NCBI GenBank assembly: GCA_039804205.1
Contig: JBDRZY010000001.1
Span: 222,198 to 286,197, forward strand
Length of the DNA: 64,000 bases
Reading direction: 5' to 3'
Source of the DNA: a candidate division WOR-3 bacterium
GTDB taxonomy: Bacteria; Hydrothermota; 32-111
The position numbers and the translations under genes were made by a program. The notes beneath the pieces were generated by a model that did not search any database, had not been told where the DNA came from, and worked only from the letters and a program-made list of their open reading frames with translations. Shown one piece after another: positions 2,827 through 36,447 of the stretch (the stretch's first letter is position 1; each line of letters starts with the position of its first letter).

Positions 2827-3764
2827 AAATCTTACAAACACACAGAATACCTTTTGATACGAAAAACTTTCTAAATGGATATGGAATAGATGTTGATATA
2901 TTCGAAAATGGGATCCCTTATGAGAAGTTTGAAGAGATTATAGAAGATTATGACGGGCTATTGTGTCTTTTGAGTGATAGGGTAGATAAAAATATTTTGG
3001 ATAAAGGAAAAAAGTTGAAAATAGTTGCAAACTATGCTGTTGGGTTTGATAATATAGATGTTTTGTATGCGAAGGAAAAAAATATTTTTGTTACAAACAC
3101 ACCCGATGTTTTAACTGAAGCAACAGCAGATATCGCTTTTGCTTTACTTCTTGCTGTTACAAGAAGAATAGTTGAGGGTGATAATCTGGTAAGAAAGGGT
3201 GAGTTCAAAGGATGGAAACCTGATCTTCTTTTAGGGAAAGATCTTTTTGGTAAAACTCTTGGAATCTTTGGTTACGGTAGGATTGGAAAAGCTGTGGCGA
3301 GAAGGGCTAAAGGTTTTGGTATGGAAATAATATTTACCGATGAGATTGTTCAAGAAGATGGAATAGGTAAAAAAGTAAGTTTTGATAGATTGATAGAAGA
3401 ATCTGATTTTATCTCCATCAATGCACCTTTGAACGATAGAACTCTTTATAAGTTTGACATGGATGTGTTTAAAAGGATGAAAAAGGATGTTATCATTATA
3501 AACACTGCGAGAGGGAAACTGATAAAGGAAAAGGATCTTGTATACGCTCTGAAAAATAACATAATAAAAGGTGCAGGACTCGATGTTTTTGAGAATGAAC
3601 CTATAATCGAAGAAGAACTTTTAAAAATGAACAATGTAGTTTTATTGCCACATATCGGAAGTGCAACTGAAGAGACAAGAGAGAAAATGGCAATGATCTG
3701 TGTCAGATCGATAGTTGAGGTGCTTGTTGAAAAAAGGAGACCAGAAAAATGCGTAAACTTTTAA
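2823..3764 (+). CDS. D-isomer-specific 2-hydroxyacid dehydrogenase (glyoxylate/hydroxypyruvate reductase family)
   Basis: NAD-binding GIFGYGRIGKAVARRA. The R-E-H catalytic triad positions are present (NTARG, ENEP, LPHIGSAT). Confidence 0.8.
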   Translation: MKILQTHRIPFDTKNFLNGYGIDVDIFENGIPYEKFEEIIEDYDGLLCLLSDRVDKNILDKGKKLKIVANYAVGFDNIDVLYAKEKNIFVTNTPDVLTEATADIAFALLLAVTRRIVEGDNLVRKGEFKGWKPDLLLGKDLFGKTLGIFGYGRIGKAVARRAKGFGMEIIFTDEIVQEDGIGKKVSFDRLIEESDFISINAPLNDRTLYKFDMDVFKRMKKDVIIINTARGKLIKEKDLVYALKNNIIKGAGLDVFENEPIIEEELLKMNNVVLLPHIGSATEETREKMAMICVRSIVEVLVEKRRPEKCVNF

Positions 3765-31333: not shown

Positions 31334-32286
31334 TGAAAAAATTTTTTGTTATTCTGTCCGTTTCATTGATTCTGCTGTTAAACATTTCCTGTACTCTTTT
31401 TAAAACTGAGAAGATGGAAAGTTCAATCTACATTCTTGATTGGGAAAAGGAAGCGGTTTACACTATAGATTCTCTATTCCAGATTGGAACAACTCCTCTT
31501 TTGATAACAGGTTCAGCACCTACAGATGTATATGTTGACGATGGAAATATTTACATTACAAATTCAGGTTTTGGAGGGATACCAACGATCGAAAAGTTTG
31601 ATCTCTCTGGAAATAAAATTGCGCAGATAGAGAGGGGAGAATTGAGTTCTCCTGCATATATTGAAGGTAATCAGGATTATATTTTTGTTACAGATTGGCT
31701 TTCGAATTCTATTTTAAAGATAGAAAAGAAAAATTTTTCAATAGTAGATTCATTGTCAGTTACAGCACCACAGGAGGTTGTTTACAGGGATGGATTTTTA
31801 TATGTAGGATCAAACAATACATCTTTAAATGGACATATATATAAAATATCTGAAGATTTTAAAAATCTTGAAACAGATCTTGCAAAAGGTTCAAATCCAT
31901 CCTATCTTGATCTTGATGAAAACAATCAAATCTATGTTTCTCTTGTTGGTAACTATAACGACATAAAGGGTAAAATAAAGAAGGTAAAAGATGGTGTTGA
32001 TGTTGATTCTTTAGGATTCGATAATTTTCTTGGAAAAGTTAAGGTTGTTGAAGATAAAATTTTTATAACAGATATCTACAATAAATTGTATATACTCGAT
32101 TCAGATTTGAATCTCATAAAAACTATTGAAATTCCATCACCTTCAGATATTGAATATTTTAAAGGAAAAGTGGTTGTTTCAACAAATGTTGGAAAATTAT
32201 ATCTTATAGATTTTTCAGAACTTACATTGGTTGATTCTTTGAGTTATGAAATACCCCTAAAGGTTGCTGAAATGTTTGTAAAATAA
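31330..32286 (+). CDS. surface lipoprotein with YVTN-type beta-propeller repeats (candidate B12-capture accessory, BtuG-like by context)
   Basis: Lipobox LLNISC. Repeated ~40-aa blades (DVYVDDGNIYITNSG, QDYIFVTDWLSNSI, DGFLYVGSNN, NQIYVSLVGN, DKIFITDIYN, KGKVVVSTNVGKLYLID). Translationally coupled (ATGA) to the TBDT. Confidence 0.55.
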   Translation: MMKKFFVILSVSLILLLNISCTLFKTEKMESSIYILDWEKEAVYTIDSLFQIGTTPLLITGSAPTDVYVDDGNIYITNSGFGGIPTIEKFDLSGNKIAQIERGELSSPAYIEGNQDYIFVTDWLSNSILKIEKKNFSIVDSLSVTAPQEVVYRDGFLYVGSNNTSLNGHIYKISEDFKNLETDLAKGSNPSYLDLDENNQIYVSLVGNYNDIKGKIKKVKDGVDVDSLGFDNFLGKVKVVEDKIFITDIYNKLYILDSDLNLIKTIEIPSPSDIEYFKGKVVVSTNVGKLYLIDFSELTLVDSLSYEIPLKVAEMFVK

Positions 32287-32337
32287 TTAAAACCTTAAGT
32301 TCTGTTATTTTTCAACATATTGTATTTTACAAAATGT

Positions 32338-32391
32338 GACCCCACTATATTTTGTGGGGTCTATTGACATTTTTGAAGTGAGTGATAATAT
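32338..32391 (+). promoter_or_regulatory. 8-bp perfect inverted repeat (GACCCCAC-N8-GTGGGGTC) abutting a TTGACA-16nt-TAATAT promoter upstream of nrdD
   Basis: IR at 32338-32361. -35 at 32364-32369 and -10 at 32386-32391. GGAGG SD at 32406-32410. Confidence 0.4.
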
Positions 32392-32403
32392 TTTTTGAAA
32401 AAA

Positions 32404-34527
32404 ATGGAGGAATGGGTGACCAAGGTTGAATACATAAGAAAAAGAGATGGTAGGCTGGAAAAGTTTGACGAGAACAAGATAACCGAAGCGATTTTTAAGG
32501 CGGTAAAAGCTGTTGGTGGAACAGATATTGAGCCAGCAAAAAAGATAACGAATCAGATAGTTGCTGTTCTTGAAGTTCTGTATAAAGATGGAAGGATCCC
32601 AACAGTAGAAAACGTGCAGGATCTTGTTGAAAAGATGCTTATCGAAGCAGGACATGCAAAAACAGCAAAAGCGTATATACTTTACAGAGAGCAACATAAC
32701 CAGATAAGAAAGAGTAAAGAGTTGATAAAAGATAGTATCGATTTGATGGATGAGTATATTGAAAAGATCGACTGGAGAGTTAACGAGAATTCAAATATGT
32801 CATATTCTTTACAGGGGCTTAACAACCATATCTCTTCAACAATTTCAGCTTTATACTGGCTTGAAAAAATTTATCCCAAAGAGGTTGCAAATGCACACAG
32901 AGAGGGAGATCTCCATATACATGACCTTGGCATGCTTTCCGTTTACTGTTGTGGATGGGATCTTGAACTACTACTGCTTAAAGGGTTAGGAGGTGTTTCA
33001 GGGAAAATAGAATCAAAACCAGCAAAACATTTCAGAACCGCCCTTGGACAGATAGTTAACTTTTTCTATACATTACAGGGAGAGGCAGCTGGAGCACAGG
33101 CATTTTCGAATTTTGATACCTATCTTGCTCCATTCATAAGGTATGATGAACTCACATATGAAGAGGTTAAACAGGCGATGCAGGAGTTTGTTTTCAATGT
33201 TAACGTTCCGACGAGAGTTGGATTTCAGACTCCTTTCACAAATGTAACCATGGATCTTGTGTGTCCAGACACTCTAAAAGATGAGAGAGTGATCATCGGT
33301 GGAAAAAGGATGAATGAAACTTACAAGGAATTTCAACAAGAGATGGACATGTTTAACAAAGCGTTTGCTGAAGTTATGATGGAAGGAGACGCAAAGGGGA
33401 GAATTTTTACATTCCCAATTCCAACATACAACATCACAAAAAATTTTGATTGGGACAATCCCAATCTCGAAAAAATATGGGAAATGACAGCAAAATATGG
33501 TATACCATATTTCAGTAATTTTATAAATTCTGATATGGATCCTTCAGATGCAAGGAGTATGTGTTGTAGATTGAGATTGGATAACAGAGAGTTGAAAAGA
33601 AGGAGTGAAAAGATCCAGTTGAATCTACTTTCGAACAGAGATTCTATCCAGGAACATAAACAGGAAAAACATCCAAAAAGAAGTGGTGGACTTTTTGGTG
33701 CAAATCCGATGACTGGTTCTGTTGGGGTCGTAACGATAAACATCCCAAGGATAGCTTACAATAGCAAAAGTAAATCTGACTTTTTCTCAAAACTTGAAAA
33801 GATGATGGAAATAGCAAAAGAATCTCTTGAAATAAAAAGAAAAGTTCTTGAAAAGTTCACAGAGGATAATCTTTATCCATATTCTAAAGTTTACCTTGAG
33901 GAAGTAAAAAAAGCGAATGGTAAATACTGGGCGAACCATTTTTCTACTATAGGACTTGTTGGAATGAACGAGGCGTGTTTAATGCTTGTAGGAGAAAATA
34001 TTGGTCAAAGTAAAGGAAAGGAGTTTGCATTAGAAACTTTAAAATTTATGAGGGAAAAACTTGAAAATTTCACAGATGAAACTGGAAACCTGTATAACCT
34101 TGAAGCATCCCCAGCTGAGGGAACATCATACAGACTTGCAAAAGAGGACAGAAAACGTTTCCCAGATATCATAACAGCAGGAAAAGATGTTCCATATTAT
34201 ACGAACTCCACACAACTTCCAGTTGGTTTTACAGACGATCTTTTTGAAGCGTTAAAATTGCAGGATGAACTTCAATGTCAGTATACTGGAGGGACAGTTT
34301 TGCATGGTTTTATAGGTGAAAGAATATATTCTTCAAACGCTTGTAAAAAACTTGTGAAAAAAATAGCAGAGAATTTCCATCTGCCATATTTTACGATTAC
34401 CCCTACATTTTCAATATGTCCTGTTCATGGATATATCCCGGGAGAACATAACTATTGTCCTTATGATCATACAACTGAAGAACTTGAAAAATTCGGTGTT
34501 GAAATATATGTTGAAAAAGGAGAGTAA
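32404..34527 (+). CDS. nrdD: anaerobic ribonucleoside-triphosphate reductase (class III RNR) large polypeptide: ATP-cone + catalytic barrel + C-terminal metal-binding segment, ending at an in-frame TAA before the glycyl-radical segment
   Basis: N-terminal ATP-cone (VTKVEYIRKRDGRLEKFDENKI). Conserved NrdD core (GGVSGKIESKPAKHF, MCCRLRLD, NLEASPAEGTSYRLA). C-terminal CPVHG...CPYDH site. True start is likely GTG 32416 or ATG 32404, after a GGAGG SD. The track start is TTG 32395. Confidence 0.85.
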   Translation: MEEWVTKVEYIRKRDGRLEKFDENKITEAIFKAVKAVGGTDIEPAKKITNQIVAVLEVLYKDGRIPTVENVQDLVEKMLIEAGHAKTAKAYILYREQHNQIRKSKELIKDSIDLMDEYIEKIDWRVNENSNMSYSLQGLNNHISSTISALYWLEKIYPKEVANAHREGDLHIHDLGMLSVYCCGWDLELLLLKGLGGVSGKIESKPAKHFRTALGQIVNFFYTLQGEAAGAQAFSNFDTYLAPFIRYDELTYEEVKQAMQEFVFNVNVPTRVGFQTPFTNVTMDLVCPDTLKDERVIIGGKRMNETYKEFQQEMDMFNKAFAEVMMEGDAKGRIFTFPIPTYNITKNFDWDNPNLEKIWEMTAKYGIPYFSNFINSDMDPSDARSMCCRLRLDNRELKRRSEKIQLNLLSNRDSIQEHKQEKHPKRSGGLFGANPMTGSVGVVTINIPRIAYNSKSKSDFFSKLEKMMEIAKESLEIKRKVLEKFTEDNLYPYSKVYLEEVKKANGKYWANHFSTIGLVGMNEACLMLVGENIGQSKGKEFALETLKFMREKLENFTDETGNLYNLEASPAEGTSYRLAKEDRKRFPDIITAGKDVPYYTNSTQLPVGFTDDLFEALKLQDELQCQYTGGTVLHGFIGERIYSSNACKKLVKKIAENFHLPYFTITPTFSICPVHGYIPGEHNYCPYDHTTEELEKFGVEIYVEKGE

Positions 34528-34695
34528 ATGGAAGAGGTAAAAGTTGTGTTAAAAGGTGAAGAAAAAGATGTTAAAAAAGTGAAAGTGATTCCAACAGAGA
34601 TTTACAGCAGAATAGTTGGTTATTTTAGACCTGTTAACAACTGGAACGAAGGCAAAAGGGAAGAGTTTAAGGAAAGAAGAGAGTTCAAACTTTAA
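34528..34695 (+). CDS. 55-codon mini-ORF encoding the NrdD glycyl-radical segment (RIVGYFRPVNNWNEGKREEF), in the same frame as nrdD directly after its TAA stop
   Basis: ATG follows the TAA immediately (TAAATG). Translation MEEVKVVLKGEEKDVKKVKVIPTEIYSRIVGYFRPVNNWNEGKREEFKERREFKL contains the canonical NrdD C-terminal glycyl radical motif. Confidence 0.6.
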   Translation: MEEVKVVLKGEEKDVKKVKVIPTEIYSRIVGYFRPVNNWNEGKREEFKERREFKL

Positions 34696-34708
34696 TAATT
34701 CCTTTTAA

Positions 34709-35410
34709 ATGGTCACTGTAAAAGGTTTTCAAGGGATAACAACACTCGATTTCCCTGAGAAAGTTTCATCCACAATTTTTCTGGCTGGATGTAACTTCAG
34801 GTGTCCATTCTGTCATAATCCTGAACTTGTAAAAGATTTTGATATCATACAAACGATAGATGAAAATAAACTGTTTTCCCTTCTTGGTGAAAGAAAAAAT
34901 TTTATTGAAGGTGTCTGCATTACAGGTGGTGAACCCTTAATGAGTGAAGATGTTGTTGATTTCATAAAAAAGTTGAAAGAAAGATTTGAACTTCCGATAA
35001 AGGTTGATACAAATGGGTACACCCCGAAAATTCTTGAGAAAATTTTAACAGCAAACCTTGTTGATTATGTTGCTATGGATATAAAAACATCTCCTTCAAA
35101 ATATATAATTGCTTCTGGAATAAACCTTGACTTTGATAGGATAAAAAATTCTGTTGAAATCTTATTGAATTCAAAAATCGATTATGAATTCAGAACTACA
35201 ATGGTTCCTCAACTCGTTACACTCGAAGATATAAGGGAGATCGGAGTTTTGATAACAGGTGCAAAAAAATATGTGATCCAACAGTATAGAAACATTAAAA
35301 CTTTAAACGAAGAATTTAAAACGGTTAAACCTTATAAACCAGAAGAGTTAAAAAAAGCAAGGGATATAATGACACAGTTTGTTAACGATGTTTCAATAGT
35401 TGGAATTTAA
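34709..35410 (+). CDS. nrdG: anaerobic ribonucleotide reductase activating protein (radical SAM)
   Basis: CNFRCPFCHN radical-SAM cluster motif near the N-terminus. 233 aa, immediately downstream of nrdD. Confidence 0.85.
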   Translation: MVTVKGFQGITTLDFPEKVSSTIFLAGCNFRCPFCHNPELVKDFDIIQTIDENKLFSLLGERKNFIEGVCITGGEPLMSEDVVDFIKKLKERFELPIKVDTNGYTPKILEKILTANLVDYVAMDIKTSPSKYIIASGINLDFDRIKNSVEILLNSKIDYEFRTTMVPQLVTLEDIREIGVLITGAKKYVIQQYRNIKTLNEEFKTVKPYKPEELKKARDIMTQFVNDVSIVGI

Positions 35411-36447
35411 CTTCGGTTTTTTATAATATTATAAAGATATTCCTTTTTTAACATAATTCTAAAAAGTTTTTCATCAAGATCCTTTTTTTGGATCTCTCCA
35501 TTCGAAATCCAGAAAGAAAGAGAATCTACCATATATTCAAAAAGTGTATCGTTCATCAGAATAAACATATCAACCCCACTTTTAAAAGATTCTTTTAAAA
35601 CTAAAAATGGATTTTTGTTTGATTTTGATGCTATATCATCGGCAATTATAACAATATCTTTATTCTTATCTCTAACGAGTTTTACGATTTTCTGTGATCT
35701 TATAGCGGGAAAAGTGTCAAGAAAAGGGTAAACTATGTTTGAAAGCATCACAAATGAAACCCTATCAAAAAAATGGTAAAACAGATTTATATTTTTCTCG
35801 AATAGTTCTTTATCGCCTTTAAATTTTGGTATAACAACATCCGAATTGTCGAAAGTTTCACCATAACCAGGAAAATGTTTTATACAGTTTAATATTTTCA
35901 TACTTTTATGAAGAGAGATGTATAGTTCAACAAAATCCTTTATGGAATCAACATTTGATACAATAGTTCTGTCGGTTCTTCTCATCATCGAATTTTGTTG
36001 ATATGATAGATCAAGAACAGGTGAGAGGTTTAAATTTATACCCAATCTTTTTTGGTTTAAAACCATATTTTTTAAAATTTTTTCTTTTCTTTCATAATCA
36101 TGAAAGATCGAATTCAAAGATGGAGTTTTTTCAATGAATGATAATCTGTCAACCTTTCCACCTTCCTGATCGATACAGATAAAAGGAGGGACTTTAAAGT
36201 TTTTTGTTAAAGAATCAACGGGAATTTTTTTATAGTATATCCTTTTTAAAAAGTTTCTTGATGGAATGATTCCACCAGGTGTATTTTCTGTGAAGTTAAG
36301 ATCGTTTCTATAAACTATGAAAAGCTGGGAAACCTTTTGCTGTAATGTCAGTGTATCATAATAAAGCACAAGATCACTTTTTTTAATAATGTAACCGGAT
36401 AGATTTTCACACAAAAGTAAAAGGATTGTTAAAATGATTATATGCAT
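35407..36447 (-). CDS. nagZ: glycoside hydrolase family 3 beta-N-acetylhexosaminidase (NagZ-like)
   Basis: PFICIDQEGGKVDRL and KHFPGYGE motifs of the GH3 N-terminal domain. Signal peptide present. Confidence 0.7.
   Translation of the reverse strand: MHIIILTILLLLCENLSGYIIKKSDLVLYYDTLTLQQKVSQLFIVYRNDLNFTENTPGGIIPSRNFLKRIYYKKIPVDSLTKNFKVPPFICIDQEGGKVDRLSFIEKTPSLNSIFHDYERKEKILKNMVLNQKRLGINLNLSPVLDLSYQQNSMMRRTDRTIVSNVDSIKDFVELYISLHKSMKILNCIKHFPGYGETFDNSDVVIPKFKGDKELFEKNINLFYHFFDRVSFVMLSNIVYPFLDTFPAIRSQKIVKLVRDKNKDIVIIADDIASKSNKNPFLVLKESFKSGVDMFILMNDTLFEYMVDSLSFWISNGEIQKKDLDEKLFRIMLKKEYLYNIIKNRS

Follow-up and report, generated by a model that had tools for sequence, protein, structure and literature searches.

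The described class III (anaerobic) ribonucleotide reductases (RNRs), such as those of phage T4, Escherichia coli, Thermotoga maritima, Prevotella copri and Streptococcus thermophilus, are canonical NrdD/NrdG systems in which the glycyl-radical domain forms the C-terminus of the catalytic chain, and the solved class III structures are all of single chains. Two other systems bear on a division of such an enzyme. GrcA (YfiD) is an autonomous glycyl-radical "spare part" of pyruvate formate-lyase (PFL) (PMC8683613), and according to a review of June 2026 spare-part proteins are known only for formate-lyases (PMC13450708). The split class II RNR NrdJa/NrdJb of Pseudomonas aeruginosa is encoded by two consecutive genes (PMC9669993). 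Here we analyze an nrdD locus within a 64-kb stretch of the genome of a candidate division WOR-3 bacterium (the window; contig JBDRZY010000001.1), in which nrdD-large, nrdD-small and nrdG follow one another in the same orientation on the forward strand. We hold with good confidence that this locus is an operon for an obligate two-chain class III RNR, in which the small chain would be an obligate subunit because the large chain has no radical domain of its own.

The preliminary description of this DNA, made from the sequence alone, had reported that an in-frame TAA splits nrdD so that a 55-codon glycyl-radical open reading frame (ORF) precedes nrdG, and this reads directly from positions 34525–34528, with protein profiles in agreement. 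The large ORF ends in ...CPVHGYIPGEHNYCPYDHTTEELEKFGVEIYVEKGE (also cited as ...TPTFSICPVHGYIPGEHNYCPYDHTTEELEKFGVEIYVEKGE) and is closed by TAA at 34525–34527; the stop is abutted in the same frame by the ATG at 34528, which opens a small ORF with the product MEEVKVVLKGEEKDVKKVKVIPTEIYSRIVGYFRPVNNWNEGKREEFKERREFKL. Among the NCBIfam models, the large ORF matches NF006126 at 1066.6 bits (cut-off 548) and TIGR02487 at 541.6 bits (cut-off 326.35), and class II RNR models match it weakly only, over the N-terminal ATP-cone. An AlphaFold2 (AF2) model in which the small chain continues the large one across the stop, run on an alignment of 61 split large chains, gave a barrel with a predicted local distance difference test (pLDDT) score mostly between 85 and 97, and the model matches the NrdD structures of P. 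copri, S. thermophilus, T. maritima and T4 with E = 1e-30 to 1e-21. The finger-loop motif SMCCRL is invariant, its Met and both Cys residues being fixed in a 62-sequence alignment (A5), and its cysteine is the presumed thiyl-radical residue. The large chain carries no glycyl-radical domain, as the ORF stops before any RxxGY motif.

That domain is found on the small ORF, which matches only the last 30–45 positions of four NrdD profiles in NCBIfam (E = 1e-10 to 3e-4). Its residues 24–53 align to residues 614–643 of T. maritima NrdD, the glycyl-radical loop, and include the motif RIVGYF with Gly31, which is invariant in both small-chain alignments (A2 and A11). The precomputed Pfam match of all small homologues returned by a first protein search is PF13597, and only NrdD models match the small ORF; homology to the PFL C-terminus (Gly_radical, PF01228) was not found. 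The ORF that follows encodes an NrdG2-type activase (TIGR02495, 205 bits against a cut-off of 131.15), and nrdG keeps this position in syntenic and distant split loci alike.

Compared with canonical NrdD/NrdG systems, to which it belongs by profile and fold, the locus retains the ATP-cone, the barrel, the finger-loop cysteine, the RxxGY motif with its tail and an adjacent radical-SAM (S-adenosylmethionine) activase, whereas the radical domain lies on a separate 55-aa polypeptide instead of ending the catalytic chain. The putative metal site also differs, being Cys-His-Cys-His (CPVH...CPYDH) where the canonical one is CPxH...CPxC or Cys4. Between the metal site and the glycyl loop there are ~40 residues more than in T. 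maritima NrdD (4COI), and the break falls within them, flanked by an acidic extension on the large chain and a basic arm on the small one. With GrcA, the locus shares a small free-standing glycyl-radical-loop protein, here of 55 aa with its own Shine-Dalgarno (SD) sequence and ATG, that would complement a barrel without a functional radical domain and would presumably be activated by the cognate activase. The GrcA/YfiD parallel drawn in the preliminary description thus stands as regards a free-standing radical module, but not as regards a back-up of an intact enzyme, because GrcA steps in only once oxygen has cleaved a PFL that possesses a radical domain itself, whereas the barrel encoded in the window never has one. 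A partner with its own radical domain is absent at the locus, there being no second nrdD within the 64-kb window, and the homology differs, the small chain being related to the NrdD C-terminus and GrcA to PFL. In NrdJa/NrdJb the catalytic polypeptide of an RNR is likewise divided, with a C-terminal module (a zinc-finger and cysteine-pair tail) on the second chain; however, that enzyme is class II and uses B12 chemistry with no glycyl radical, while profile and fold place the large ORF in class III, and NrdJb is a sizeable folded protein that delivers reducing equivalents, while the small chain is a radical loop of 50–60 aa that would supply the initiating radical.

The junction is conserved among close relatives. 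Syntenic contigs from independent assemblies, namely candidate division TA06 bacterium 32_111 (GCA_001507835.1), GCA_020721805.1 and several Logan assemblies, have the same neighbors and the same junction, in which the stop of the large ORF is directly followed by the ATG of the small one. Alignment with the nrdD of relatives, a check proposed in the preliminary description, found no sense codon at the stop, which is TAA in the window and in two relatives (L004 and L005) and TAG in three others (L001–L003). The junction ATG is invariant across the aligned syntenic relatives, as is GAAAAAGGAGA just upstream of it in all six aligned sequences, which puts an AGGAG 5 nt ahead of the ATG. Relative to these syntenic contigs, synonymous divergence (dS) is close to saturation (1.1–1.7), and the ratio of nonsynonymous to synonymous divergence (dN/dS) is 0.02–0.05 for the large ORF and 0.11 at dS 1.15 for the small ORF, values that show purifying selection on both. 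L013, a WOR-3 relative farther away, has its two ORFs 1 nt apart in different frames. Together with the family-wide two-gene layout, the conserved junction and the selection on both ORFs support the earlier suggestion that the glycyl-radical element would be made as a separate small protein.

The two-gene layout extends far beyond this lineage. None of the 120 best homologues of the large chain (63–100% identity) reaches an RxxGY motif; CPVHGY...CP(Y/H)xH is common to nearly all of them, and their source labels include WOR-3, TA06, Spirochaetota, a Firmicutes metagenome-assembled genome (MAG) and Desulfuromonas sp. AOP6. The genome of the last is complete, and there a spacer of 102 nt comes after the large gene, then AGGAGG, an ATG opening a 48-codon radical-domain gene, and nrdG; on a 3.2-Mb Spirochaetota contig a 73-nt spacer separates the large gene from a small gene with its own SD and ATG, after which comes nrdG. 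A scan of reference genomes, one genome per species, was made with an alignment of small ORFs as the query, and the best 80 of 589 relatives were kept; a script classified ~38 of these 80 loci as split and ~33 as fused, a split fraction that is biased upward, since it was resemblance to aligned split small ORFs that set the ranking. Among the split loci all three stop codons (TAA, TAG and TGA) and all three relative frames occur, spacings range from short overlaps to ~230 nt, and the small gene almost always has a strong SD and an ATG. Cultured carriers include Thermodesulfobacterium thermophilum DSM 1276 and Thermodesulfatator autotrophicus, and MAG carriers come from Caldimicrobium, Leptospirales, Aquificales, Fermentibacteria, Chloroflexota, Lentisphaerae and a Methanosarcinales archaeon. 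When 1.84 billion cluster representatives were searched exhaustively with HMMER, 2944 matched, and the best 150 of these are all 42–172 aa long; the first protein search with the small ORF had also returned short proteins only, which we do not count as evidence because its word-based tool favors matches of the query's own length. RefSeq already lists such small ORFs (for example WP_155877071.1, WP_157627886.1 and WP_013906755.1, the last from the complete genome of Thermodesulfatator indicus DSM 15286), with annotations in T. indicus, T. autotrophicus and Desulfuromonas AOP6 under the automatic names "anaerobic ribonucleoside-triphosphate reductase" or "hypothetical protein". Thus, we conclude that split nrdD is a large conserved family and no peculiarity of the window's genome.

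At least three configurations of the split can be distinguished by where the chain is broken. Fused relatives read TPTFSICPxHGY..GEHxxCPxC, then 4–6 residues, then EVYSRxVGY. In type A, to which the window belongs, the CPxC of the fused forms is replaced by CPxxH, which all split type-A relatives carry as the second metal motif; the large chain then continues with (S/T)xEELxx(F/Y)G(V/I)E..., and a Lys-rich arm opens the small chain. Type B, seen in Hippea (L062) and some Spirochaetes (L048, L060 and L091), keeps CPxC intact on the large chain, which ends in a long helix as the small chain begins in one, e.g. RIEELEKAKKEIKG; these helices suggest a putative coiled-coil docking device. In type C (Desulfuromonadales, L006 and L067) the break lies inside CPxC and the last cysteine is on the small chain, in MxKC(G/D)xKTEVYSR, which suggests a metal site that would be shared between the two chains. 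Over 39 distinct split pairs, the large-chain extension is net acidic in 35 (mean -3.1) and the small-chain arm net basic in 35 (mean +2.1), with alternating patterns such as VEIYVE in the extension against KVKVKV in the arm. Concatenations of large and small chains from 20 loci align well (A6). A rough neighbor-joining tree of the barrel, without support values, places the window in a large, mostly split clade with a fused Dehalococcoidia/Moorella group nested inside it, and places type B, L006 and L016 among fused lineages, which points to probable multiple fissions or re-fusions of nrdD.

Three other explanations of the junction were weighed against the two-chain enzyme. The stop could be read through or recoded, so that the real product is a single fused NrdD of ~765 aa with the small ORF as its C-terminus. 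In the window and in L001–L005 the ORFs share a frame with no spacer, and read-through there would give a contiguous NrdD with a linker of ~45 residues; moreover, fragment P0274 is not split: its type-A extension runs in frame into the radical loop, and it may be an intermediate that precedes the split. We nevertheless rejected recoding of TAA, because TAA is the commonest ordinary stop in the window, where it closes 25 of 47 long ORFs (TGA 17/47, TAG 5/47; G+C 31.6%), and its recoding is therefore not at issue, while the interchange of TAA and TAG among relatives rules out selenocysteine or pyrrolysine insertion. A perfect AGGAG-N5-ATG is conserved at the junction, and an Rfam scan of 32200–35500 returned nothing near any gathering score, hence no known RNA element there. 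Most other split loci, as well as L013, have different frames, overlaps or spacers, so read-through is not the mechanism of the family, and for the window we consider it unlikely.

Alternatively, the small ORF could be a spare part only, in the manner of GrcA, with a working full-length NrdD elsewhere in the genome and the large ORF a truncated paralogue of other or no function. Extra radical-domain ORFs do occur beside full-length nrdD in Patescibacteria and as orphans elsewhere, and our view of this organism's genome is limited to 64 kb. However, these 64 kb hold no second nrdD, the large chain keeps every conserved barrel motif at the low dN/dS given above, and the large, small and nrdG genes remain one unit across phyla; the spare-part-like ORFs elsewhere are, in addition, ~95 aa long with a zinc ribbon of their own, unlike the 55-aa chain. 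This explanation appears very improbable. Scarcely credible is the remaining one, also raised in the preliminary description, that nrdD is a decaying pseudogene closed by a nonsense mutation, or that the stop stems from faulty sequencing or assembly. A lone in-frame stop that parts two homologous stretches of an otherwise uninterrupted protein does look like a nonsense mutation. However, independent assemblies of relatives at near-saturated synonymous divergence keep it as TAA or TAG, with an ATG after it and an invariant SD before it, both parts are under strong purifying selection, and the same split recurs across phyla with intergenic spacers, including complete genomes of cultured organisms with spacers of 70–100 nt and ~38 reference-genome loci.

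Several observations on radical modules in other loci are set down here. In five Patescibacteria loci (L047, L050, L068, L069 and L090; ~3300–3600 in each) a full-length fused nrdD is followed 1–17 nt later by an extra ORF of 92–96 aa, with a separate zinc ribbon (CHDCG...CNEC) and a radical loop that hardly differs from the NrdD C-terminus; judged by its sequence, this ORF is a predicted true GrcA-like spare part for RNR. One of them is named a DUF1610 Zn-ribbon protein by JGI. Orphan ORFs of 97–112 aa that combine a zinc ribbon with an NrdD-type radical loop, with no nrdD adjacent, occur at L007 3501–3794, at L008 2972–3265 and in L082, and the one in L007 adjoins the oxidative-stress genes for rubrerythrin and desulfoferrodoxin. 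A C-terminal thioredoxin-like domain with CPxC is present on the small chains of L016, L040, L048, L060 and L091 and on the fused NrdDs of L058, L083 and L092, which suggests a putative built-in reductant attached to the radical module. The type C break lies at L006 3470–3530, at L011 4960–5130 and in L067 and L078, with the last cysteine ligand within MKCGQKTEVYSR, and the AOP6 spacer (L011 4990–5091) holds an extended inverted repeat, GTGAGGCGTGAGG...CCTCACGCCTCACCCCTCACGCC.

For the two-chain enzyme we propose a mechanism whose steps are drawn from established class III RNR and glycyl-radical-enzyme chemistry. The large chain (~703 aa) would provide the ATP-cone, the catalytic barrel, the finger-loop cysteine and the Cys/His metal site, and the 55-aa chain would supply the radical domain, being made by termination–reinitiation coupling through the AGGAG within the last codons of the large ORF, the TAA and the ATG. 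NrdG, with S-adenosylmethionine, would take a hydrogen from Gly31 of the small chain, whose Gly loop would then sit in the barrel of the large chain beside the SMCCRL cysteine, and the docked Gly radical would generate the thiyl radical that starts nucleotide reduction. From the charge pattern, the acidic, strand-like extension of the large chain probably pairs with the basic, strand-like arm of the small chain and holds the two together. Two pay-offs are plausible: a radical domain cleaved by oxygen could be swapped without discarding the 80-kDa barrel, and the activase would have free access to the glycine. Cryo-electron microscopy of P. copri NrdD found the radical domain to be mobile and able to be fully disordered while still acquiring the radical (PMC11226230), which makes a detachable domain mechanistically plausible.

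Some points weigh against this proposal, among them the upward bias of the split fraction given above. The 55-aa peptide is a prediction from the genes alone. AF2 did not place the small chain: residues 702–762 of the joined model have pLDDT <50, so that this model is silent on docking. Modeled alone with 60 homologues, the small chain lacks a compact fold and appears as an extended chain with one short helix at a mean pLDDT of 66.7, and a Foldseek comparison of that model with the Protein Data Bank gave no meaningful match. Docking and strand pairing of the chains are thus ideas that AF2 does not back. A minor read-through fusion product may possibly occur in the window and its closest relatives, because the ORFs there are in frame without a spacer, and a second, intact RNR may possibly be encoded elsewhere in the genome, beyond the 64-kb window.

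The features of the locus are collected in Table 1. The start of nrdD-large is ambiguous between TTG 32395 (710 aa), ATG 32404 and GTG 32416 (703 aa), of which the GTG is the likelier, as it is preceded by GGAGG and fits the 703-aa NCBI call. A palindrome, CCCCACTATATTTTGTGGGG, lies at 32341–32360 just upstream of the promoter-like -35 element of nrdD; we take it to resemble an NrdR box, and a scan also read it as a terminator-like hairpin on the minus strand. Right behind the finger loop (window ~33600–33680) the large chain has a Lys/Glu-rich insertion of ~27 residues, SEKIQLNLLSNRDSIQEHKQEKHPKR, which is common to L001, L004, L018 and L027, is absent from most homologues and is an unconfident part of the AF2 model (residues 412–434).

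Table 1. Features of the split nrdD locus, in positions of the window
Feature	Position	Strand	Basis or remark
Promoter-like site TTGACA, 16 nt, TG-n-TAATAT, upstream of nrdD-large	32364..32392	+	Consensus scan 10/12 plus extended -10 TG; pattern match only
nrdD-large, class III RNR catalytic chain (ATP-cone and barrel) without glycyl-radical domain	32395..34527	+	Profiles, AF2 fold, dN/dS
Finger-loop motif SMCCRL with presumed thiyl-radical cysteine (Met-x-Cys pattern)	33556..33573	+	Role by homology
Putative metal-site remnant CPVHG...CPYDH (Cys, His, Cys, His), wholly on the large chain	34417..34470	+	Sequence motif
Acidic C-terminal extension of the large chain, TTEELEKFGVEIYVEKGE	34471..34524	+	Absent from T. 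maritima NrdD
Shine-Dalgarno AGGAG, 5 nt before the small-ORF ATG, inside the last codons of the large ORF	34518..34522	+	
TAA stop of nrdD-large, abutting the next start codon	34525..34527	+	
nrdD-small, predicted 55-aa glycyl-radical subunit with basic N-terminal arm and motif EIYSRIVGYFRPVNNWNEGKREEFKERR	34528..34695	+	Profiles, conservation
GGT codon of Gly31, predicted radical glycine	34618..34620	+	G of RxxGY, homology to T. maritima NrdD
nrdG, radical-SAM activase	34709..35410	+	TIGR02495 NrdG2

Beyond the two-chain enzyme itself, we advance a broader hypothesis, tentatively and as the less probable side of an even wager. The small 6.5-kDa chain may be a dissociable radical subunit: NrdG would charge it away from the enzyme, it would then be brought to the barrel, and a damaged copy would be replaced, so that the chain acts as a renewable and possibly sub-stoichiometric or shared cofactor of an essential enzyme. 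The RNR would then be the first natural glycyl-radical enzyme of this kind, and the split would have evolved several times with different docking devices, namely acidic/basic strand pairs, coiled-coil helices and a zinc site shared between chains. The preliminary description knew of no such arrangement for an RNR, and our search of the full-text literature likewise turned up no account of a class III NrdD that is split, truncated or encoded in separate pieces, within a coverage that left out most subscription journals, so that a prior description is possible.

Two long-standing questions about glycyl-radical enzymes are how an activase gains access to the buried glycine and how cells cope when oxygen irreversibly cleaves the chain at that residue. 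To our knowledge, both have so far been answered only for PFL and its spare part GrcA. Because annotation pipelines use one name for both chains, or label the small one hypothetical, a survey that relies on a C-terminal glycine motif may count the carriers as having no functional class III RNR. A two-chain RNR would offer a clean system in which the radical domain could be made, activated, labeled, exchanged and titrated apart from the barrel, and with it the concept of an exchangeable radical module would come to include an enzyme that many strict anaerobes need for DNA synthesis.

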